A stretch of 64,000 nt of DNA from Parcubacteria group bacterium Gr01-1014_8 (GCA_007376385.1 VMGC01000002.1:136372-200371); one strand, 5' to 3'; shown: positions 4,926-14,813, counted from the stretch's first letter. The notes: generated from the letters alone by a model not told the origin. Numbers and translations: made by a program.

Positions 4926-7151
4926 ATGAGGCATATATTCTTAATCGTGCTTGCTGTCGCTTTTGCTGTATCTCTTGCAGCTTCAGTTTTTACGTTGATG
5001 CAAGTGAACAAAGAGACAGATGAGTTGTCGAAGAAGCTCAGGGAGAGGACGCTGCTTCTTGCGGATGGTCTTGCAGAGTCCGCGGCTCCTGCGTACGCGC
5101 GATATGCCACGAGTACGCTGGAAAAGTTGGCGAACACCTTTACGAATCGCGAGCGTCTCATCGGCCTTGCATTTTATGACACGCGCGGTAATAAAATTGC
5201 CGGTTCGAGCGGCGTCACAGATGAAATGCTGAAAAATGCGCCGATTCTCGATACATTCAATAGCACCGAGCCTGACGACGCTTTTGCAATTACCGAAGGG
5301 ACGAGAAAATATTATTTCGCGCAACCACTCCACTCTGACGATGCCTATATTGGCTCGCTTGTACTTGTGCAGGATGCCAGTGATATCGATGTGGCAATGA
5401 GCAGGATATGGCGAGACACATTTCTGAAACTTTTCGTATATTTTCTCCTTTTTGCCGTCGCCATCGCAGCCCTTGTCTACTTTGTGCTTTTCAAACCGCT
5501 ATCGAATTTAGCTGAATCTATCCGCCAGGCGCGAATGAATAAAGATGCGCGTGCTCCTCAACCCTCGCACCACAATTTTTTTCTGCAACCTCTTGCGATG
5601 GAAGTCTCGAAACTTGCGTCTTCACTCGCGCAGGCACGAACTGCTGCAAGCGAAGAGGCGCGTATGCGCCTTGAAAAGATTGACACCCCTTGGACGGAGG
5701 AGAGGCTAAAGGAATTCATAAAGGCGTATCTCAAGGATAGGCCTATCTATGTCGTTTCGAATCGAGAGCCCTACATACACTCCAAGGATCGCGGAGAGGT
5801 CACCTACTCGGTGCCTGCGAGCGGCATGGTGACAGCGCTTGAGTCTGTCATGGCGGCCTGCGGAGGGGAATGGCTCGCTCATGGCAGCGGAAATGCTGAC
5901 AAAGAAATGGTCGATGCGGAGAGCAAGATCCGTGTCCCACCAGATGAGCCGAAATATACCTTGAAGCGTATTTGGCTGAATCCAAAAGAGGTCAAGGGCT
6001 ATTATGTCGGTTTCTCGAACGAGGCTCTGTGGCCGCTGTGTCATATAGCGCATACGAGGCCGACCTTCAGAAAGGAAGACTGGCTGATGTACAAGCGCGT
6101 GAACGGCAAGTTTGCTGAGGCGCTTCTTGCGGAATTAAAAGGCGTCGAGCGCCCCATAGTGTTGATACAAGATTTTCATCTTTCTCTTTTGCCGCGGATG
6201 ATAAAGGAGTCGCGTCCGGACGCACAGGTCGGTCTTTTTTGGCACATACCCTGGCCGTCCGCAGAAGGCTTCAGTATCTGTCCTTGGAGAAAAGAGATAC
6301 TGCAGGGAATGCTCGGCGCGGATATAATCGGTTTTCATACGCAGCAGTTCTGCAATAATTTCCTCGAAACTGTCGGAAAAGAGATCGAATCGCTTATCGA
6401 TCTGGAGCAATTTGCTGTTACGAGCGATGAGCACACATCATTCATCAAGCCATTTCCTATAAGTATTTCGTTCACTGACGCAATGGAGGGAAAGACGTCG
6501 ATAGCGCCTGATCGCGCTGCTCTTGAAGCGATGGACATTCGAACAGAGTTCGTCGGACTTGGCGTGGACAGGCTCGACTATACGAAGGGAATTCTTGAGC
6601 GATTCAGAGGGATCGAATTTTTTCTTGACGCTCATCCGGATTTTTATAAACGATTTACGTTCTTGCAGGTCGCACCTCCGAGCCGCGAGGAATCGGAAAA
6701 GTATCGGGATTATGCAGTTGCCGTCGAGGCAGAAGCAGCCCGAGTGAATGCAAAATTCAGAAAGAATGGATGGCAGCCCATTCGTTTTGAAAAAAGGCAT
6801 TTTTCGCACTCGGAACTTGTGCCGCTCTACCAAACAGCGAACTTTTGTCTTGTGACATCTCTGCACGACGGCATGAACTTGGTCGCCAAAGAATACGTGG
6901 CAGCAAGAGATGATGAAGCAGGAGCCCTCATCTTGAGCAAATTCACCGGCGCTTCTCGCGATTTCAATCGCGGTGCGCTTATCGTCAATCCCTATAGCGC
7001 CGAAGAGGTCTCGGAAGCTATCCACCGTGCTCTCGTCATGCCCGCCACTGAGCAGCATCGTAGAATGAGATCCATGCGAACATCAATACGAGACTACAAT
7101 GTGTATCGCTGGGCGGCTGAATTTATAAAAGCAGTTGCAGCGCTCCGATAA
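4926..7151 (+). CDS. otsA: Trehalose-6-phosphate synthase (GT20, OtsA) fused to an N-terminal 2-TM periplasmic sensor-like domain with a HAMP-like linker
   Basis: GT20 core (PIYVVSNREPY, FSNEALWPLCH, HDGMNLVAKEY); N-terminal 250 aa has TM1 (aa 4-24), an approximately 140-aa extracytoplasmic segment and TM2 (aa 168-190). Confidence 0.8.
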   Translation: MRHIFLIVLAVAFAVSLAASVFTLMQVNKETDELSKKLRERTLLLADGLAESAAPAYARYATSTLEKLANTFTNRERLIGLAFYDTRGNKIAGSSGVTDEMLKNAPILDTFNSTEPDDAFAITEGTRKYYFAQPLHSDDAYIGSLVLVQDASDIDVAMSRIWRDTFLKLFVYFLLFAVAIAALVYFVLFKPLSNLAESIRQARMNKDARAPQPSHHNFFLQPLAMEVSKLASSLAQARTAASEEARMRLEKIDTPWTEERLKEFIKAYLKDRPIYVVSNREPYIHSKDRGEVTYSVPASGMVTALESVMAACGGEWLAHGSGNADKEMVDAESKIRVPPDEPKYTLKRIWLNPKEVKGYYVGFSNEALWPLCHIAHTRPTFRKEDWLMYKRVNGKFAEALLAELKGVERPIVLIQDFHLSLLPRMIKESRPDAQVGLFWHIPWPSAEGFSICPWRKEILQGMLGADIIGFHTQQFCNNFLETVGKEIESLIDLEQFAVTSDEHTSFIKPFPISISFTDAMEGKTSIAPDRAALEAMDIRTEFVGLGVDRLDYTKGILERFRGIEFFLDAHPDFYKRFTFLQVAPPSREESEKYRDYAVAVEAEAARVNAKFRKNGWQPIRFEKRHFSHSELVPLYQTANFCLVTSLHDGMNLVAKEYVAARDDEAGALILSKFTGASRDFNRGALIVNPYSAEEVSEAIHRALVMPATEQHRRMRSMRTSIRDYNVYRWAAEFIKAVAALR

Positions 7152-7152
7152 T

Positions 7153-7929
7153 ATGAGGTATTCCGAGTCGGTGCTTCCGGTGATGAGGGCGATCAGAGAC
7201 ATGCTTCTCCCAGAGTGGGGCGTCGCGAAAGCCGTCCATCAAAAAACAGCGTCCTCATGGAGCGTCGTTACGGCGCTCGATATCGAAATAGAAAAATTTG
7301 TGAGCGCCGAATTGGCGCATCTCCACCCTGATATTGAATTTGTCGGAGAAGAGCAAGGGGGGAATAGAAGTGCGAAGAAATTCTGGTTGATGGACCCGAT
7401 AGACGGAACGGCTCACTTTATCCGCGGCCTGCCGTTCTGCACGTCGATGCTTGCATTGGTCGACAGAGGGCATGTCGTTTTTTCTGCCATATACGATTTT
7501 ATACACGACGAAATGTATTTTGCTGATAAGGGGAAAGGAGCGTTCTGCAACGAAAAGAAGCTTTCAGTGAGTTCGCGAACGTTAAAAGATTCTTTCGTCT
7601 CGTTCGAGACGGATATTGCAATCGAGAAGAATGCTAATTTGCGACAAAAAATGCTCTCGCAAACGAACGTAATGACGACATTTTGTGCAGGCTGGGAATT
7701 TGCAATGGTCGCATCAGGAAAAATTGATGCGCGAATATGTCTCGACCCGTTTGGCCAAGATTATGATTTCGCTCCTGGTACGCTATTGGTAATGGAAGCA
7801 GGAGGCGTCGTCACGAACCTTGATTCGCACGAATTTGACTATACGAATTTGGATCTCATCGCAGCAAATCCGCTTGTGTATAAAGACCTTACGGAGGGAG
7901 AATCAGCATTATTCCCTCTCGGGCGCTAG
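7153..7929 (+). CDS. Inositol-monophosphatase-family phosphatase (SuhB/CysQ-like)
   Basis: WLMDPIDGT motif, EEQGG motif; ATG 2 nt after the otsA stop (the track ORF starts earlier at a TTG at 7135). Confidence 0.75.
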   Translation: MRYSESVLPVMRAIRDMLLPEWGVAKAVHQKTASSWSVVTALDIEIEKFVSAELAHLHPDIEFVGEEQGGNRSAKKFWLMDPIDGTAHFIRGLPFCTSMLALVDRGHVVFSAIYDFIHDEMYFADKGKGAFCNEKKLSVSSRTLKDSFVSFETDIAIEKNANLRQKMLSQTNVMTTFCAGWEFAMVASGKIDARICLDPFGQDYDFAPGTLLVMEAGGVVTNLDSHEFDYTNLDLIAANPLVYKDLTEGESALFPLGR

Positions 7930-8023
7930 CTATAGAGGGATGTGGACAATTGATTAACTTCTCTGCCTGCAGGGGACTATACTTGCAGGAAGGGTCGATT
8001 ATACATATTCACTCTATTTTTAT

Positions 8024-8242
8024 ATGAAGTGGTTACACATGGTCTCCTATATCCTCGTATTTGCTGGAAGCTTGAACTGGCTGCTTTTGGCGCTTACTGG
8101 ATGGGAAATAGGCTCTCTGTTCGGAGGTATGACAGCTCCAATATCGCAGGTGGTCTATGTGCTAGTTGGACTTGCAGCCATCTATCTCATCGCGACCCAT
8201 AGGAAATACTGCAAAGAGTGCGCAGCAGGTGCGCCAATGTGA
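8024..8242 (+). CDS. Small 2-TM membrane protein, DUF378 family
   Basis: 72 aa, GSLNWLLLAL...GLAAIYLI pattern typical of DUF378. Confidence 0.55.
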   Translation: MKWLHMVSYILVFAGSLNWLLLALTGWEIGSLFGGMTAPISQVVYVLVGLAAIYLIATHRKYCKECAAGAPM

Positions 8243-8437
8243 AGCTAGCCACCGCCGTTCGCGACGGTGTACTGGGGCTGGCTTGCTGATAACGTGTCTC
8301 TCTGCCGACTTGAGATCAATCTTTGCCACCTCACCGTAGTTTGGCGGCAATTCCAGATTATGAAGAGCGTGCGCGGTGGGCCCAAACCAAAACGCTCGAG
8401 GAAACTCGGGCGTTTTGCATGCTAAAGTTTCAAGAAT

Positions 8438-8980: not shown

Positions 8981-9076
8981 GCAACAGAGTACTTTTGCAT
9001 TTCTCTCGCAATGCTCGCAAATAAAATGTGAAGGCATCTTGACTCGATTTCGTGCACGGGTAGAGTATGGGGGTTC

Positions 9077-9271
9077 ATGAACGTCTCAAATAATGTACAG
9101 AAATTGCGTATGAATCGTGATCTCACGCAAGAAGCGCTGGCGGATAAGGTTGGTGTTTCGCGCCAAACGATTATTTCTATAGAGAAGGGGAATTACACAC
9201 CCTCAGTCTTGCTTGCTTTGAAGATCGCACGCATATTTAAAGTGCCTGTTGAGGACGTCTTTTACCTATGA
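9077..9271 (+). CDS. XRE-family helix-turn-helix transcriptional regulator (Cro/C1-type)
   Basis: LTQEALADKVGVSRQTIISIEKG HTH signature; 64 aa. Confidence 0.8.
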   Translation: MNVSNNVQKLRMNRDLTQEALADKVGVSRQTIISIEKGNYTPSVLLALKIARIFKVPVEDVFYL

Positions 9272-9630
9272 ATTCACTTTTCATTCAGGTTGGTGTTGCT
9301 GTCGTTTTCATCGGGCTCCTCGTTGGACTTACCGATCCTTTTATGTACTGGATGCCCGATATGGCGGCATTAGTGGTACTCGTCGTCGCAGCTGCTCTTT
9401 CGGCGACGTGGGTAGGATTTGTTGCTCTTGAACAGAGGGGAGACGAACGTGAGGCGGGTCACCGACAATTTGCAGGACGTGCGGCGTACCTCTCAGGTAT
9501 CGCGATACTAACGATCGCGTTGGTTGTTCAAGGCTTAGCGCACGTTATTGACTCCTGGATTTCGATGGCACTTGGTGCAATGGTTGTTGTGAAGCTTGTA
9601 GCTCGCTGGTTTGCGGATCGTTTTTACTAA
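9268..9630 (+). CDS. Membrane protein co-transcribed with the XRE regulator (ATGA overlap), 3-4 TM
   Basis: Hydrophobic helices; start overlaps the HTH gene stop. Confidence 0.55.
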   Translation: MNSLFIQVGVAVVFIGLLVGLTDPFMYWMPDMAALVVLVVAAALSATWVGFVALEQRGDEREAGHRQFAGRAAYLSGIAILTIALVVQGLAHVIDSWISMALGAMVVVKLVARWFADRFY

Positions 9631-9738
9631 ATTGGACACCGCGGCTATCCACATGTGCAATGTTAAGTGCACTTTACATATCACGATTTGTATATACACT
9701 ATTCGTAATTAATCGAAATTCAGAAATAACGTAACGTT

Positions 9739-10308
9739 ATGCAATACGGAATTATTGGTCTCATTGTGCTGGCAGTTCTTGGGGGAGGTTTCTATGTTTT
9801 TCTAGGCTCATCGCAGGATACGGCAATGGTGGAGAAAGAAAAGATGGAGAAGGATGCAATGATGCAGCAAGAGGTAATGGAAATGGAAAAGAAAGCTACG
9901 ATGGAAAAGGAAGCAATGGAAAAAGAAGTAATGATGAAGGAAGAGGCGATGAAAAAAGATGACTCGATGATGGAGAAAGGTGATGCAATGATGGCGCACG
10001 GAGGCACCTATGAGGCGTATGCTCCTGAAAAGATCTCATGGGCAAAAGATGGTGACGTTGTTCTATTTTTCCGCGCATCGTGGTGCCCAACCTGCAGGGC
10101 AGTTGATGCGGACATTCGCTCGCATCTCTCCTCAATACCTAAGGATCTAACCATTCTCGACGTGAATTACGATAACTCGTCAGCACTGAAACAAAAATAC
10201 GGCGTGACCTACCAGCACACCTTTGTGCAAGTGGATGCTTCGGGAAATCAGATCACGAAATGGAGTGGAAGCCCAACTCTTGCGGCACTTGTTTCTAATG
10301 TAAAATAG
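9739..10308 (+). CDS. Membrane-anchored thioredoxin-like protein with a Met/Glu/Lys-rich low-complexity linker
   Basis: N-terminal TM; approximately 60-aa M/E/K-rich segment (MEKEAMEKEVMMKEEAMKKDDSMMEKGDAMM); thioredoxin fold WCPTC active site. Confidence 0.75.
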   Translation: MQYGIIGLIVLAVLGGGFYVFLGSSQDTAMVEKEKMEKDAMMQQEVMEMEKKATMEKEAMEKEVMMKEEAMKKDDSMMEKGDAMMAHGGTYEAYAPEKISWAKDGDVVLFFRASWCPTCRAVDADIRSHLSSIPKDLTILDVNYDNSSALKQKYGVTYQHTFVQVDASGNQITKWSGSPTLAALVSNVK

Positions 10309-10312
10309 AAAC

Positions 10313-12079
10313 ATGGTTTTGCTCATCCTCTCGTTCGTAGCAGGTGTACTAACAGTACTTGCACCTTGTATACTTCCGCTTCTGCCCGTCATCATTGGCG
10401 GCTCACTTGATCCGATGCGACACGTGCGTTTAAAGCATGCCACAACGGTTGTGCTTTCGCTCGGTGTTTCCGTTATTGTCTTTACGTTTCTTTTGAAAGT
10501 GAGCACTGCTCTTATATCTGTCCCGCCGCAGGTTTGGACGTATCTTTCGGGAGGCATTGTCTTTTTTTTCGGATTGACCTTACTTTTTCCCGGACTCTGG
10601 GAACATGTGCCGTTCATCGCAAAACTTAGCAGCCGTTCGAACCGGCTGGTTTCGACTGGCTATCAGAGGAAGAGTTTTTGGGGAGACATTTTGATAGGCG
10701 CAGCACTCGGACCGGTATTTGCGACGTGTTCTCCCACATATTTCATAGTTCTCGCGACAGTATTGCCGCAAAGTCCTGTCCTCGGCTTTGTGTATGTATT
10801 GGCGTACGTTCTCGGACTTTGTCTGATGTTGCTTCTTATCGGTATCGTCGGCCAGCGTCTTGCGGATAGCCTCGGATTTGCTTCTGATCCGCACGGAAGT
10901 TTCAAGCGCATACTTGGCGTCATATTCATGATAGTCGGGCTCGTGATCATTATGGGCTTCGATAAGAAATTTCAGATCAAGCTATTGGAGTGGGGTATAT
11001 TCGATATTACCAAAGTGGAGCAGCGGCTGTTGCAACTCACTGATCCGAATGCAAAAGGACTTGTTCCGAGCCAATCCATTGCCATTTTGGATGAAGAAAT
11101 GCGCATCGCGCAGAAAGAGAGGCTGTACGAACGAGCGCCAGAAATTCAAAATCCCGCTGGCTATGTGAACACTGGCGGCAGACCTGTCACCATCGGTGAA
11201 TTCCGCGGGAAAAAAGTCGTGCTTCTCGACATTTGGACCTACAGCTGCATAAATTGCCAGAGAACCATTCCCTACCTTAAGGCATGGCACGAGACGTACA
11301 ATGATCAAGGATTACAGATAATCGGTATACATACGCCGGAATTTGCGTTCGAGAAGGACGCAAAGAATGTCGAATGGGCAGTTCGGCAATTCGGGATCAC
11401 GTATCCAAGTGTTCTGGATAACGATTATGAGACGTGGAAAGCACTCGGTAATAATTACTGGCCGCGAAAATATCTCGTGGACATCGATGGGTTCATTGTA
11501 TACGACCATATTGGTGAGGGAAATTACGAGGAAACTGAAGCAGCGATCCAGAGGGCTCTGCAGGAGAGGGCGATGGTGGTGGGTAGTGAAATGCCTGGTA
11601 AAAAGATCGTCGCGGAAGAGATCCCTCAAGCTGATCTATCGGGAGTGCGTTCGCCGGAAACGTATTTTGGAGCTTTGCGAAACGAGAGTTTAGCCAATGG
11701 TGATCCGCAGACCATCGGTGTTGAAACGTATATACTGCCAGAAAATATCATAGGAAATGCGCTCTATCTGGAAGGGATATGGGATTTGACCCCGGAATAC
11801 GCGGGATCGAAGGGAAGGACAAAGATAGTCTACAAATATAATTCGCGGGATGTATACCTTGTGGCGAGTAGCGACAAAGGAGTGAAAATAACTGTCCTTC
11901 GAGATGGGAAGCCCGTTGGCGAATTTGCGGGTGCAGATATTGACCAGACAACAAGCACCGGGACGATCAAAGAAAACAAGCTGTACAAATTGGTGCATGA
12001 CGATGAGCCAGGACAACATCTACTTGAAATAGTCATAGAAGGCGAGGGGGTAAAGGCGTACGCGTTCACATTCGGTTGA
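10313..12079 (+). CDS. CcdA/DsbD-type membrane thiol-disulfide transporter fused to a TlpA-like thioredoxin domain and a C-terminal domain (DipZ-like)
   Basis: LAPCILPLLP CcdA motif with multi-TM N-terminal half; redoxin domain with the CINC active site (DIWTYSCINCQRTIPYL); approximately 170-aa C-terminal extension. Confidence 0.8.
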   Translation: MVLLILSFVAGVLTVLAPCILPLLPVIIGGSLDPMRHVRLKHATTVVLSLGVSVIVFTFLLKVSTALISVPPQVWTYLSGGIVFFFGLTLLFPGLWEHVPFIAKLSSRSNRLVSTGYQRKSFWGDILIGAALGPVFATCSPTYFIVLATVLPQSPVLGFVYVLAYVLGLCLMLLLIGIVGQRLADSLGFASDPHGSFKRILGVIFMIVGLVIIMGFDKKFQIKLLEWGIFDITKVEQRLLQLTDPNAKGLVPSQSIAILDEEMRIAQKERLYERAPEIQNPAGYVNTGGRPVTIGEFRGKKVVLLDIWTYSCINCQRTIPYLKAWHETYNDQGLQIIGIHTPEFAFEKDAKNVEWAVRQFGITYPSVLDNDYETWKALGNNYWPRKYLVDIDGFIVYDHIGEGNYEETEAAIQRALQERAMVVGSEMPGKKIVAEEIPQADLSGVRSPETYFGALRNESLANGDPQTIGVETYILPENIIGNALYLEGIWDLTPEYAGSKGRTKIVYKYNSRDVYLVASSDKGVKITVLRDGKPVGEFAGADIDQTTSTGTIKENKLYKLVHDDEPGQHLLEIVIEGEGVKAYAFTFG

Positions 12080-12137: not shown

Positions 12138-14093
12138 ATGGAATCCGCACGAGCCGAGAAAATACAAAAATCACAAGATGCCGATCTGTCAACTCAACCT
12201 GCAGCGGAACCTAAGTCAGTCGGAGATGATCAATCTGGCATAGATACGGCTCGAAATGAGGAGGAAAGGAATCGTGAAGAACGAGTTCAGCGAGCCGAGA
12301 CAATGTCCAAGATGTTGGATGTGTACGTGGCGAACAGAACTCCATCGTTAGTAGAGGAGGCCCTTAAAGGGATGCCAGAAACAGAGGTCGCTGTAAGAGA
12401 GGCGCGTGCGCAAGAAGTCAAAGAGCAGTCCGAAAGAATAAAGCAATTTTTCGTCAGTGTTGACGCTGGGAAAAGAGAGGAAACGCCGCTAACAAGAATG
12501 GCTCAAATTTATGAGTATCTTGATGCTCCGGAAAATCCTAGCGAACAAGCTGAATTTGAGACTGCGATGTCAGCTCATATGCAAGAATTAGTGGAACGTG
12601 CGTTTGATCAGCACCTAGACAACCCTGAGCAGTATGTGTCTCATGGATTCGATCATTCCCTCAACGTTGCCGATTATGCCAAAAATATAATTGATTTGAA
12701 TGATGTAATTGTCGACCAGACCGCCCAGAAATACGGCATAAGTGCGAAGGAGGCAAAATTTATGCTGGAAAATGTTGCACTTTTTCACGACTGCGGCTAC
12801 CCTCATGTTGGCGCAAAGGCAAAAGCTGTGCACGGCATTGCCGGTGCAGATCTTATCTCGACCCCGAAAATGCAGGGAATATTTCGGAATCTCATTAGGA
12901 CCCCGGAGGCTAATTTGGACCTGCTTAGCCACGATCTGAGGGATTCAATACTTTTCCATTCAGCGGATAAAGTTGAGAATCAATTTTCAGCAAAAATACG
13001 GACTACACGCGGGACCTTTTTGTCGGAAGGTAGGGACGTGTATACGGTCATATCAACTTTTAATGATCCCTCGGAGAATCCGGTTGGAGTTGCGCGAGAT
13101 ATTTTGGAGATTGAGGTTGCTGATGAAGAAACAAAATTGGACATCGAAGCGCAACTTGCATTGGCGGCCGCTGATACAGCAAGAAAAACAGGTCTGCCAC
13201 CCGAATCAATTCCGGTTACTGTAGGAGGCTCCCGATTTAAGGGCAGATACACAGATCTTGCGAGGGCGAAGGATAATCGTTTGGGTTTGGAGTACTCAGA
13301 AATCGATGCTTTGCAGACACCATTGCATGCGATCATTCGATTGGCAGACAATATGGACATGCGCCGCAATCGATTTTCTGCTGTACAGAGGGAGCCAGCG
13401 TTTCGTGCAACCTATCAAGCGTTTAGCGATGGGGGACAGACGAGCAGAGCCCTTGTAACTTTAGAGGCCGAAAGTAAATTATTCAAAGGTCGCTTGGCAA
13501 GTGCGGGTTCAGAGACAGAAAAAGCTCAGCTTCTGGCAGACTCACCGCAGCTCGTTCAGTCGCAGTTTCAAGCGCTACTGGCGGAAAATCAAAACCTTGT
13601 AACAGTCACAACGGAAGAAATAGCGTCGTTGCAGCAACCTTCAGACGCGGAGAAACTTTGGAGAAAAGGCATAGCGGAACGGATCATCAACAGCGAAGAT
13701 CAGGTGTTATCGCCGGAGAATAAAAGAAAAATAATGAGCATGGCTCTTGCGCAAGATTCACAGGGAATGCGGCATTTTGGCGGTTGCGAAGCGGTAACAG
13801 ATGTCCGAATGGAACGTTTCGGTGAGCGCGGAGCTGAAGTTTCAATTGTCGTTGTTACAGCAGATAGGGGGCAATTTGAACAGCTCAATCGCACGCGTGT
13901 TCAGGATTCAAGCCTCGATAAAGAGGGGAACGTCAGCACTGTCGAGCTTGGCATAGGTGAGTATCAAATTTGGCGCGCGCGTGAGGCTTACAAAAGTATC
14001 TCGGTTGGTGGGAAAAAGATCGGCATAAGGGTTCAGGACGAGAATGGCTTGGAACTCCAAACGACTTTTGAACAATTTAGAGAGGAGAAATAG
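12138..14093 (+). CDS. Large HD-domain (metal-dependent phosphohydrolase) protein with a charged N-terminal region and a long uncharacterised C-terminal region
   Basis: H...HD pattern: HSLNVADYA...LFHDCGYPH; TATAAT lies 8 nt before the start (leaderless-like). Confidence 0.55.
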   Translation: MESARAEKIQKSQDADLSTQPAAEPKSVGDDQSGIDTARNEEERNREERVQRAETMSKMLDVYVANRTPSLVEEALKGMPETEVAVREARAQEVKEQSERIKQFFVSVDAGKREETPLTRMAQIYEYLDAPENPSEQAEFETAMSAHMQELVERAFDQHLDNPEQYVSHGFDHSLNVADYAKNIIDLNDVIVDQTAQKYGISAKEAKFMLENVALFHDCGYPHVGAKAKAVHGIAGADLISTPKMQGIFRNLIRTPEANLDLLSHDLRDSILFHSADKVENQFSAKIRTTRGTFLSEGRDVYTVISTFNDPSENPVGVARDILEIEVADEETKLDIEAQLALAAADTARKTGLPPESIPVTVGGSRFKGRYTDLARAKDNRLGLEYSEIDALQTPLHAIIRLADNMDMRRNRFSAVQREPAFRATYQAFSDGGQTSRALVTLEAESKLFKGRLASAGSETEKAQLLADSPQLVQSQFQALLAENQNLVTVTTEEIASLQQPSDAEKLWRKGIAERIINSEDQVLSPENKRKIMSMALAQDSQGMRHFGGCEAVTDVRMERFGERGAEVSIVVVTADRGQFEQLNRTRVQDSSLDKEGNVSTVELGIGEYQIWRAREAYKSISVGGKKIGIRVQDENGLELQTTFEQFREEK

Positions 14094-14108: not shown

Positions 14109-14813
14109 ATGACCAACGAAGCAGATCAAAGTGGAAAGCATCACATGTCGGAGACGCCTGATTCTGTGCGTTGGAAACAAAGTCTCGCAGGCAAATTGTG
14201 TTCACGATTGGAAAAAATTGCAAAAGACACAGGTAAAACATTCCGAATGCTCGGGGCAGGGTCATCTGTCGAGGTGTTTGAGTTTGGCGGGGAACGAGCG
14301 GAGTTAGTAAAGCACATGGAGAACAGTACTGTTGGGGACGTAGGCGGTTCTATACGAAATTACGTAGAATCGTGGGACTACAAACGATTGCCTTGGTGGC
14401 GAGACGCACTCATGAGTGAACAGGCACCGTATGAGTTACTCGACATTCCCGTATCTCGCGCGGCGAGAGATGCCGGGGTTGAGAGGTGGCGAGAGCTTTT
14501 TATTCCCGCACAAGTTGTCAATACCTTTGATCTTGTTACGCCTGACAATTGGAGAGAAGTGGAGGCAATGAAGGAATGGGTTCGATCTTCGATTACGAAC
14601 ATTCTAGGTCGTATCGTTCGTCCTGATTACTCCGTCACATTCTTTGAGAACTCTTTGAGACTCGCGCCTCTCACAGAGGGGGCAATTCTAAGTAAAACAG
14701 TCGATAATGAAACATATAGCAGTTTGCTAAAAAAGATCGAGATCATCGCACCCGCGTTCGAACTGGAATATGCGCGTAAACGTGACAAGCGAAGCAAAAC
14801 ATCTACATCTTGA
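14109..14813 (+). CDS. Hypothetical protein (no recognisable domain), probably co-transcribed with the HD-domain gene
   Basis: ORF 15 nt downstream of the HD gene; consistent coding appearance. Confidence 0.45.
   Translation: MTNEADQSGKHHMSETPDSVRWKQSLAGKLCSRLEKIAKDTGKTFRMLGAGSSVEVFEFGGERAELVKHMENSTVGDVGGSIRNYVESWDYKRLPWWRDALMSEQAPYELLDIPVSRAARDAGVERWRELFIPAQVVNTFDLVTPDNWREVEAMKEWVRSSITNILGRIVRPDYSVTFFENSLRLAPLTEGAILSKTVDNETYSSLLKKIEIIAPAFELEYARKRDKRSKTSTS

Follow-up and report, generated by a model that had tools for sequence, protein, structure and literature searches.

We analysed a 64-kb stretch of DNA from Parcubacteria group bacterium Gr01-1014_8 (called the window below; these 64 kb are the part of the genome that was examined). 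We found that two neighbouring genes in it belong to a conserved four-gene cassette. One encodes a methionine-rich, membrane-anchored thioredoxin (open reading frame 1, ORF1) and the other a DipZ protein, in which a CcdA domain is fused to further redox domains (ORF2). The order of the cassette is XRE regulator, small protein with four transmembrane (TM) segments, Met-rich thioredoxin and CcdA fusion. In a scan of one genome per species, at least 540 genomes proved to carry the thioredoxin gene, and almost all of these belong to Patescibacteria. The cassette is a signature of the Parcubacteria/Paceibacteria; it is confined to Patescibacteria and very widespread inside this group. We tentatively propose that it is an inducible extracytoplasmic antioxidant and methionine-redox module, in which the Met-rich tether of the thioredoxin may serve as an oxidant sponge.

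Parcubacteria-type organisms of the candidate phyla radiation (CPR) are largely uncultured. Their genomes are tiny and hold few recognised stress systems, and a regulated cassette that hundreds of species have kept probably plays a central part in how these bacteria withstand oxidants at their surface. Our literature searches found no paper describing the cassette in CPR bacteria. A CcdA-driven reducing pathway, a putative sponge similar to the methionine-rich protein MrpX that serves as the tether of a thioredoxin, and a thioredoxin with His in place of cis-Pro have not previously been described together.

Gene order and exchange of the output module

The window belongs to a metagenome-assembled genome, and the products of ORF1 and ORF2 are 100% identical to its proteins G01um10148_545 and G01um10148_546. 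Both genes lie on the + strand with a gap of 4 nucleotides (nt), and the coordinates given in a preliminary description of this DNA were exact. We compared the neighbourhoods of 80 related loci, whose 1,291 neighbouring ORFs were clustered all-against-all. A CcdA-type gene lies directly 3' of the thioredoxin gene in 75 of the 80 loci, and a contig end cuts two of the five exceptions. For the two upstream genes only loci long enough for the gene slot were counted. The XRE gene (64 amino acids, aa) was found just upstream in 65 of 76 such loci, with the same strand and a constant distance in every case, and the gene of the 120-aa membrane protein in 66 of 78. An XRE regulator and a membrane protein had been remarked upon upstream in the preliminary description, and both proved to be part of the same conserved cassette. 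Beyond the four cassette genes nothing was enriched in the clustering, and the genes that lie further out on both sides of the cassette in the window (NUDIX, DUF378 and a 651-aa protein) were not conserved across the 80 loci.

In 73 loci the sequence extends for 1.9 kb or more on the 3' side of the thioredoxin gene, and in these the gene downstream of it was typed. A fused DipZ was present in 44 loci, and a CcdA gene split from a redoxin-Thioredoxin_10 gene in 15. Two loci (L073 and L077) hold further split variants and were binned separately, and four have a downstream gene without the Thioredoxin_10 domain. One locus (L048) has a CcdA-only gene and three (L040, L044 and L062) have no CcdA-type gene; in L044, a membrane-anchored methionine sulfoxide reductase B (MsrB) is encoded directly 3' of the thioredoxin. 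In four loci (L037, L053, L063 and L067) the slot of DipZ is occupied by a CcdA-MsrA-MsrB fusion of about 600 aa, with matches to PMSR (PF01625, MsrA; E 7e-58) and SelR (PF01641, MsrB; E 1e-41).

This fusion is not restricted to a few loci. At least 120 homologs with at least 76% identity were found among the matches listed, and the named sources of these were Paceibacterota, Parcubacteria or "bacterium". When four CcdA-MsrAB fusions were looked up independently, all four had the XRE gene, the membrane protein and the thioredoxin upstream. The thioredoxins of these four sister cassettes have linkers with 12-33% Met and 37-47% charged residues, carry the same QHT motif as ORF1 and stand behind the same operator. 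Because of this swap in sister loci, the cassette can be written as [regulator][membrane protein][Met-rich thioredoxin][CcdA-X], where X is either the DipZ ectodomain or an Msr pair. The replacement of the DipZ ectodomain by MsrA-MsrB points to methionine oxidation rather than to metal. In an MsrAB cassette the tethered thioredoxin is, by its predicted domains, the only thioredoxin-fold protein available as electron carrier from CcdA to Msr.

We surveyed 84 related loci (1.06 Mb) for a palindromic operator, with a threshold of at most one mismatch to the consensus. The family consensus, ATGTAAAG-N4-CTTTACAT, is a perfect inverted repeat of the form 8-N4-8. In total 93 sites were found, against about 0.01 expected by chance, and they occurred in 70 of the 84 loci. 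Their position is fixed between the membrane-protein gene and the thioredoxin gene.

One further locus, L083, has extra separate MsrB and MsrA genes and a gene for a DM13-domain protein (6803-8249) 3' of its CcdA-MsrA-MsrB cassette. It is a local concentration of Met-sulfoxide repair genes.

The tethered thioredoxin and DipZ

The preliminary description had read ORF1 as a membrane-anchored WCPTC thioredoxin with a Met-rich linker of about 60 aa. The Pfam match, the TM segment and the 15 Met among 61 linker residues all bear this out. The model of the thioredoxin domain is of high confidence (pLDDT 94-98) and shows the canonical thioredoxin order of secondary-structure elements. W115, C116, P117 and C119 are invariant, so the CxxC motif itself is intact. 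The closest solved structure is Trxlp of Edwardsiella (5ZF2), which is the best fold match (TM score 0.76) and is also found by sequence (E 1.3e-5). The ORF1 thioredoxins form a large family with no model in Pfam or NCBIfam, and Trxlp is their only solved relative.

An invariant His stands in ORF1 where thioredoxins have a near-universal cis-Pro. This is a new finding, which the preliminary description had missed. In the HMMER alignment to thioredoxin 2vim, H160 falls in the cis-Pro column (KYSVTAMPTFV in 2vim, KYGVTYQHTFV here), and ORF1 lacks the cis-Pro with which strand beta-3 begins (Pro76 of the E. coli protein). Q159-H160-T161 is invariant in 42 aligned homologs, and QHT was found in 79 of the 80 genome loci. 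We also inspected 150 representatives of the wider family, which comprises 3,414 clusters at 50% identity; xQHT predominates among them, with QST or QTT in a minority. The redoxin domain of ORF2, encoded in the same operon, keeps its cis-Pro (YWPRKYLVD).

Within the thioredoxin fold the cis-Pro is better conserved than even the CxxC motif (PMC2757866), and a 2026 study describes it as a universal lock for substrate positioning (PMC13269488). It may also block the binding of metal to the thiolates (PMC2757866, citing Su et al. 2007). In peroxiredoxins, a catalytic Arg takes its place (PMC2757866). His160 may bind metal, tune a pKa or take part in catalysis, or determine specificity; its presumed adjacency to the cysteines follows from the cis-Pro column of the alignment and from general knowledge of the fold. 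The Edwardsiella proteins Trxlp/TrxH (5ZF2, 5ZPV) resemble ORF1 in having WCPxC and in lacking the cis-Pro, with Q-S-T where ORF1 has Q-H-T. However, they share only about 24% identity with it, have Ser for His and no Met-rich tether, and belong to a proteobacterial pathogen whose biology, as reported, is different (PMC6466703).

The tether of ORF1 (61 aa) contains 15 Met, 13 Glu, 11 Lys and 4 Asp, which makes it 25% Met and 46% charged. The 43 long ORFs of the window have a mean Met content of 2.4%, and any 60-aa stretch in them holds at most 6 Met. The DNA that encodes the tether has tandem periodicities of 15 and 21 nt. Among the 120 best thioredoxin homologs the linkers contain 8-33% Met (median 22%), and their composition is kept while sequence and length drift. 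Conservation of the Met-rich segment, to which the preliminary description had tied its interpretation, thus holds among these close homologs, but about half of the wider-family representatives lack such a segment. The structural model draws the tether as a long helix, with low confidence (pLDDT 44-58).

We examined the spacing of Met residues in 63 non-redundant linkers. The family repeat unit is close to [D/E]-D-A-M-M-K-K-D, which gives evenly spaced Met pairs insulated by charges. Spacings of i+1 and i+6/i+7 are strongly enriched (z about +13). In contrast, spacings of i+2, i+3 and i+4 were observed 18, 0 and 7 times against about 158 expected for each (z about -15). His makes up 0.3% of the linker residues and Cys 0%. 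Mets motifs that bind Cu(I), as in Ctr1, CopC and CueO, are MxM/MxxM arrays, often with His. The linkers show neither the Met clusters at i+2/i+3 nor the frequent His of such motifs. The clustered Met residues had been taken in the preliminary description as a hallmark of Cu(I)-binding proteins; these linkers avoid the very spacings concerned and have almost no His and no Cys. High Met content alone is not a copper signature, and it is the spacing that is informative.

The linker could also be a single alpha-helix that acts as a spacer. Opposite charges at i+4 are modestly enriched (z 3.3-4.6), acid-to-base pairs at i+3 are depleted, and 20% of the residues are helix-breaking. The charge pattern thus speaks in part for and in part against such a helix.

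Several variants of the family were observed beside these linkers. Some orthologs (P0088, P0254 and P0326; L066, L035 and L064) have an extra domain of about 110 aa within the Met-rich linker, with the conserved signature P-[AS]-H-I-H-x-G...S-C-G-D-I. We considered whether this domain (PAHIH-G-C...SCGDIV) is a Cu,Zn-superoxide dismutase and rejected the assignment, as no PDB match was found and CHRD matched below threshold only (E 0.011 and 0.099). L062 encodes a 315-aa variant (607-1554) with a signal-peptide-like N-terminus and a PG_binding_1 domain between two Met-rich segments. It lies outside any cassette, with no XRE gene, membrane protein or CcdA nearby, and shares its metagenome-assembled genome with L005, which has a full cassette. 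Distant members (P0241-P0249, P0276, P0319 and others) are lipoprotein-like and have two or three tandem thioredoxin domains of the QHT type. Their linkers are rich in Ser, Thr and Asn, not in Met, and WCPxC is changed to SCGTC in some copies.

ORF2 had been described as a CcdA domain joined to a TlpA-like CxxC domain and a further C-terminal domain, as in DipZ, and this was confirmed by Pfam and by the match to 2HYX/5CYY. The membrane domain matches DsbD_2 (E 7.6e-07; 29.6 bits, cut-off 24.9) and, below the cut-off, DsbD_TM (E 1.1e-4; 22.1 bits), and it has CcdA-type cysteines at C19 (APCILP) and C139 (ATCSPT). The classification of the C-terminal region by profile, which the preliminary description had suggested, gave PF17991 (Thioredoxin_10) over its full length (1-142 of 142; 109.7 bits against a cut-off of 27.1). 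The extracytoplasmic half aligns with Mycobacterium tuberculosis DipZ (2HYX/5CYY) over aa 246-535 (E 6e-57), and the motif YSCINCQR is identical in ORF2 and in the 2HYX alignment; SCINC is a reported DipZ motif (PMC6107167). All three structural marks of the DipZ family were found, and ORF2 is a member of it. From these predicted architectures, we judge that the preliminary description was right in seeing a functional envelope redox pair.

The M. tuberculosis protein (Rv2874) has the same series of CcdA, TlpA-like domain (Y-S-C-I-N-C-Q-R identical) and Thioredoxin_10. In contrast to it, the DipZ of the window stands in a regulated cassette with a Met-rich thioredoxin, and no cytochrome c maturation genes were seen nearby in the window or the 80 loci. 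The physiological role of M. tuberculosis DipZ itself is unestablished. Outside DipZ proteins, the SCINC domain is most closely related to SOQ1 of plants and NHLRC2 of animals (E about 1e-20), whose thioredoxin-like domains have a CCINC motif related to the SCINC of DipZ (PMC6107167). However, they carry an NHL propeller and Cys-containing C-terminal domains that are absent from the DipZ of the window.

Proposed function and alternative explanations

The analysis itself shows the domains, their conservation, the gene order, the exchange of modules, the operator and the spacing of Met; how electrons travel, what the sink does and how the cassette is regulated we infer from sequence and context. 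The CcdA domain of DipZ, as in its family, would carry reducing equivalents across the membrane from the cytoplasmic thioredoxin system through C19 and C139. The SCINC redoxin domain fused to it and the WCPTC thioredoxin tethered to the membrane would receive them. The 60-aa tether, with Met doublets spaced by charged residues, may be a solvent-exposed methionine sponge like MrpX, and its composition and context suggest that, at the cell surface, it is a sacrificial target of peroxide or of oxidants of the hypochlorite type. In the sister cassettes, the CcdA-fused MsrA-MsrB would regenerate the methionines, with the tethered thioredoxin as the only relay. The XRE protein probably represses the thioredoxin-DipZ promoter through the palindrome overlapping its -35 element, and a candidate for the sensor is the membrane protein, whose W-M-P loop is invariant.

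We favour this antioxidant and methionine-redox function because of the MsrAB swap, the MrpX-like linker, a streptococcal precedent, the dedicated repressor and operator, and the kinship with SOQ1 and NHLRC2. A preprint reports that the thioredoxin-like domain of SOQ1 supplies lumenal Met sulfoxide reductase activity and proposes CcdA as donor. Our belief in this function is slightly less than even.

The streptococcal precedent is the CcdA-Etrx-MsrAB2 system of Streptococcus pneumoniae, a surface pathway tied to Met-sulfoxide repair and oxidative-stress resistance, with related operons in S. gordonii and Fusobacterium nucleatum (PMC3914529). The window likewise has a CcdA conduit and a membrane-anchored extracytoplasmic thioredoxin fold in one operon, and the sister cassettes with CcdA-MsrA-MsrB match the pneumococcal system. 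However, the cassette of the window has a DipZ ectodomain and no surface-exposed MsrA/MsrB as terminal acceptor. Its thioredoxin has a TM anchor with a Met-rich tether rather than a lipid anchor, and His for cis-Pro. CcdA is here covalently fused to the output module, and regulation is of the XRE/4-TM type.

The sink is modelled on MrpX of Azospira suillum, an exported sacrificial hypochlorite sink with 20% Met and 44% charged residues that is regenerated by a Met sulfoxide reductase (PMC4436054). Its homolog BcrX of Brucella is an MXKDX-repeat protein (PMC8315932). Like these proteins, which act with YedY/MsrP, the tether is exported and consists almost entirely of Met (20-25%) and charged residues (44-46%). 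It is encoded next to an extracytoplasmic reducing system and stands under a dedicated membrane-linked regulator, and the family repeat D-A-M-M-K-K-D holds an MXKDX-like core in a sequence of low conservation. The differences are that the repeat period is about 7 with Met doublets instead of 5, that the tether is fused to a thioredoxin instead of being a free peptide, that the partner is a thiol-based CcdA instead of a molybdoenzyme, and that the regulator is of XRE type instead of an extracytoplasmic function (ECF) sigma/anti-sigma pair. An Msr, as encoded together with MrpX-type proteins, is lacking in the cassette of the window and occurs in the sister cassettes as the CcdA-MsrA-MsrB fusion. 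The likeness of the tether to MrpX is one of composition and context, by analogy and not by homology.

By these analogies, the system would work most like the surface repair of CcdA-Etrx-MsrAB combined with a methionine sink of MrpX type. Five things set it apart from both: a sink that serves as the tether of a thioredoxin, His for cis-Pro, interchangeable DipZ and MsrAB outputs, XRE/4-TM regulation with its operator, and a distribution restricted to Patescibacteria.

Several results weigh against the proposed antioxidant function. As about half of the more distant family members (150 representatives) have no Met-rich linker, the tether is an accessory rather than the system's core. The linker could not be placed in the MXKDX/MrpX family, since TIGR02953 gave E 2.2 and 8.3 bits against a cut-off of 41, and the linkers of three orthologs had no match to this model. 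No exported Msr is encoded in the cassette of the window, and the MsrA (at about 46.5 kb) and MsrB (at about 24 kb) found elsewhere in the window have no signal peptide or TM segment and look cytoplasmic. Therefore the sink would be unregenerated, or regenerated by some other means. No Cys is present in DipZ's C-terminal domain. Finally, the cis-Pro, a residue regarded as indispensable for normal thiol-disulfide exchange with substrates, is missing from the thioredoxin, the putative relay.

The canonical DipZ architecture would also suit a generic disulfide reductase or isomerase of the envelope. In such a system the thioredoxin and DipZ would keep the cysteines of secreted or surface proteins (e.g., pili) reduced, and the linker would be a flexible or helical spacer through the cell wall whose Met residues have no chemical role. 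The E/K-rich linker modelled as a long helix, the modest enrichment of opposite charges at i+4 (z 3.3-4.6), the peptidoglycan-binding domain in the linker of L062, which fits a tether that spans the cell wall, and the Met-poor linkers in half of the distant relatives are all consistent with it. However, about 20% Met with a strict spacing rule is maintained across 63 linkers of otherwise drifting sequence, and a pure spacer would not need this. The confidence of the tether helix is low, and 20% helix breakers with depletion of acid-to-base pairs at i+3 are not the classic signature of a single alpha-helix. The MsrAB swap and the dedicated repressor and operator also point to a stress function. 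We consider the generic role unlikely.

Copper defence was the reading of the preliminary description, which named the ScsB/ScsC systems as the nearest resemblance. By analogy with ScsB/ScsC and TlpA/ScoI, the tether would capture Cu(I), the CxxC and His160 would form a Sco-like Cys2His site, and DipZ would keep the cysteines reduced. A tether with 25% Met invites this idea. So does the missing cis-Pro, a residue that may keep metal from the CxxC (PMC2757866, citing Su et al. 2007), with an invariant His in its place. A Met/His-rich DUF305 protein is encoded near the cassette in 4 of the 80 loci, and in one locus (L084) a CsoR-type repressor and an HMA P-type ATPase lie about 4.4 kb away. However, the spacings MxM, MxxM and MxxxM are almost absent (18, 0 and 7 against about 158 each) in linkers with 0.3% His and 0% Cys. 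No copper gene is enriched in the 80 loci, and the same thioredoxin, regulator and operator serve CcdA-MsrAB in sister cassettes. Half of the wider family keeps the His without a Met-rich linker, and ORF1 has no Pfam match to SCO1/SenC or DsbA-like families. The copper reading is not supported by these results, and we consider it quite unlikely.

The two comparisons on which this copper idea draws fit in part only. ScsB/ScsC, like the present pair, has a membrane reductase of the DsbD superfamily beside a thioredoxin-fold partner in the envelope (PMC3322552). However, ScsB is organised like DsbD and has a distinctive periplasmic domain at its N-terminus (PMC3322552), whereas in ORF2 the membrane domain comes first and the soluble domains are C-terminal. 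The isomerase ScsC resembles DsbC/G, whereas the model and Pfam give ORF1 a minimal thioredoxin fold without an inserted or dimerisation domain; its best fold matches are classical thioredoxins and its only Pfam matches are of plain Thioredoxin type. The architectures of ScsB and ScsC are thus not present, and the resemblance was not upheld. Sco/SenC proteins and ORF1 both have a thioredoxin fold that escapes the usual constraint of a cis-Pro, and two Cys and one His that might together form a metal site. However, Sco has CxxxC where ORF1 has CxxC, the His of ORF1 is at the cis-Pro position, and no match to PF02630 was found at E <= 0.01.

The DUF305 protein (E 1.5e-21), a possible metal-related neighbour, has a Met/His/Gly-rich N-terminus (MMPNGQMMGNGGSMSM...) and is encoded a little 3' of the cassette in the four loci, for example at 9500-9910 in L044 and 11261-11671 in L011. 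In L084 the Trns_repr_metal (CsoR-type) gene and the HMA/P-type ATPase (11220-11815) lie near an MsrAB-type cassette, with a divergent RelA/SpoT gene between. This CsoR/CopA pair was seen at a single locus, and we regard its position as coincidental.

The DipZ ectodomain (SCINC redoxin and Thioredoxin_10) together with the cis-Pro-to-His thioredoxin might itself be a thiol-based Met-sulfoxide or peroxide reductase, previously unrecognised and interchangeable with MsrA-MsrB, in which His160 would be catalytic like the Arg of peroxiredoxins. In its favour is the replacement of [redoxin and Thioredoxin_10] by [MsrA and MsrB] in a cassette that is otherwise identical. As the cassette of the window has no exported Msr and a Cys-free Thioredoxin_10, there is room for the DipZ ectodomain and the His-thioredoxin to do the work of MsrAB. 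SOQ1, the nearest non-DipZ relative of the SCINC domain, has lumenal Msr activity according to the preprint. The catalytic Arg of peroxiredoxins occupies the cis-Pro position (PMC2757866), and envelope chains from ScsB through TlpA to a peroxiredoxin exist (PMC3322552). However, the Msr activity of SOQ1 was assigned to its Cys-containing C-terminal domain, whereas the Thioredoxin_10 of DipZ here has no Cys. We find such a reductase decidedly improbable. If it were true, the DipZ/SOQ1/NHLRC2-type domain family, long uncharacterised, would gain a function, and a residue at a supposedly invariant position would turn out to be catalytic. More generally, the exchange of the DipZ ectodomain for MsrA-MsrB provides a testable hypothesis for DipZ-type domains, including those of mycobacterial DipZ, SOQ1 and NHLRC2.

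Cytochrome c maturation, in which DipZ and the thioredoxin would reduce the CxxCH of apocytochromes, is suggested by database names such as 'cytochrome c biogenesis protein DipZ' given to several homologs, by the action of CcdA/DipZ with a ResA/CcsX-type thioredoxin in System II (PMC3781833), and by WCPTC/WCPSC being the motifs of M. tuberculosis DsbF and Pseudomonas aeruginosa DsbE (PMC6107167), but we regard it as barely credible: no ResB/ResC (CcsBA)-like genes are among the enriched neighbours of the 80 loci, the window ORFs of at least 150 aa contain one CxxCH in 64 kb of genome, within a 168-aa reading frame on the reverse strand, the thioredoxin lacks the cis-Pro that ResA and CcmG have, and the partner module can be MsrAB.

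Regulatory genes, promoters and other observations in the window

The coordinates of the cassette and its parts are given in Table 1. The XRE protein is strongly conserved (TQE.LA..V.VSRQTIIAIEKGNYTPS). The gene of the membrane protein overlaps the stop of the XRE gene by 4 nt. Invariant residues of the membrane protein include P24 and W28-M29-P30 in the first hydrophilic loop, E55, D59-E60-R61 and G70-R71 in the basic middle loop, and D95, W97, M105, K109 and R113 elsewhere. The positive-inside rule would place the W-M-P loop on the outer side of the membrane. The protein had no significant match in our Pfam and NCBIfam scans. Its orthologs bear only weak precomputed marks of DUF2178 (PF09946), a family of membrane proteins that are partners of small XRE regulators, and this assignment was not confirmed, as the window protein and four orthologs gave zero matches even at E <= 1.

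Table 1. Positions of the cassette genes, protein domains and regulatory sites in the window
Feature	Coordinates	Strand	Evidence
Candidate promoter 5' of XRE gene, TTGACT-16-TAGAGT	9039-9066	+	Consensus scan
XRE/Cro-type helix-turn-helix (HTH) regulator, 64 aa, first cassette gene, putative repressor	9077-9271	+	Pfam HTH_3, E 5.6e-16
120-aa membrane protein, about 4 hydrophobic segments, putative sensor or regulator partner	9268-9630	+	66/78 loci
Palindromic operator ATGTTAAG-TGCA-CTTTACAT, 20 bp	9660-9679	.	Only window site within 3 mismatches of consensus
Promoter-like site for thioredoxin-DipZ, -35 TTTACA, 16 nt, -10 TACACT	9673-9700	+	Consensus scan
ORF1, membrane-anchored thioredoxin, 189 aa	9739-10308	+	
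ORF1 N-terminal membrane anchor, aa 1-27	9739-9819	+	Single hydrophobic segment aa 1-26; modelled helix 4-22
ORF1 Met- and charge-rich tether, aa 28-88	9820-10002	+	Composition
ORF1 thioredoxin-fold domain, aa 89-189	10003-10308	+	Pfam Thioredoxin, E 8.8e-10
ORF1 WCPTC cysteines, C116 and C119	10084-10086 and 10093-10095	+	
ORF1 His160 at cis-Pro position	10216-10218	+	
ORF2, DipZ, 588 aa	10313-12079	+	
ORF2 CcdA-type transmembrane electron-transfer domain, aa 1-222	10313-10978	+	DsbD_2, Cys motifs, multiple hydrophobic segments
ORF2 TlpA/ResA-like redoxin domain, aa 273-413, Y-S-C-I-N-C (C312/C315)	11129-11551	+	Redoxin, E 1.6e-13; AhpC-TSA, E 4e-11
ORF2 C-terminal Thioredoxin_10, aa 447-588, no cysteines	11651-12079	+	PF17991, E 2.3e-31

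The -35 hexamer of the putative thioredoxin-DipZ promoter lies inside the right half of the operator, and related loci have a TATACT/TACACT-type hexamer 3' of the palindrome at constant spacing. Our promoter and terminator scans of the region gave counts not above shuffled expectation, and the call of this promoter is based on the conserved arrangement of operator and -10 element. We infer that the small, dimeric XRE protein binds the palindrome and represses this promoter. At the promoter-like site upstream of the XRE gene in the window, no operator copy with three or fewer mismatches was found.

A 9-mer like a DnaA box was observed about 10 nt upstream of the operator (TTATCCACA, the consensus of the E. 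coli DnaA box). It is present as TATCCACA in 22 of 67 related loci, roughly a third. The site in the window, CTATCCACA at 9645-9653, matches at 8 of 9 positions, and the window holds no perfect copies elsewhere. This 9-mer could be the site of a second regulator or part of the promoter.

Directly 3' of DipZ, two ORFs of 651 aa (12138-14093) and 234 aa (14109-14813) have no significant family match (weak HD, E 0.006), and they are not conserved beside the cassette in other genomes. Elsewhere in the window (4926-7151), a trehalose-6-phosphate synthase (Glyco_transf_20, E 3e-114) has an unusual N-terminal extension of about 270 aa that starts with a hydrophobic segment. Almost all 2-kb bins of the window have a positive GC skew, and the cumulative curve climbs nearly without a break. 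The long ORFs around the cassette are nearly all on the + strand. The GC skew and the gene strand are consistent with a location on one replichore and a strong co-orientation of genes with replication.

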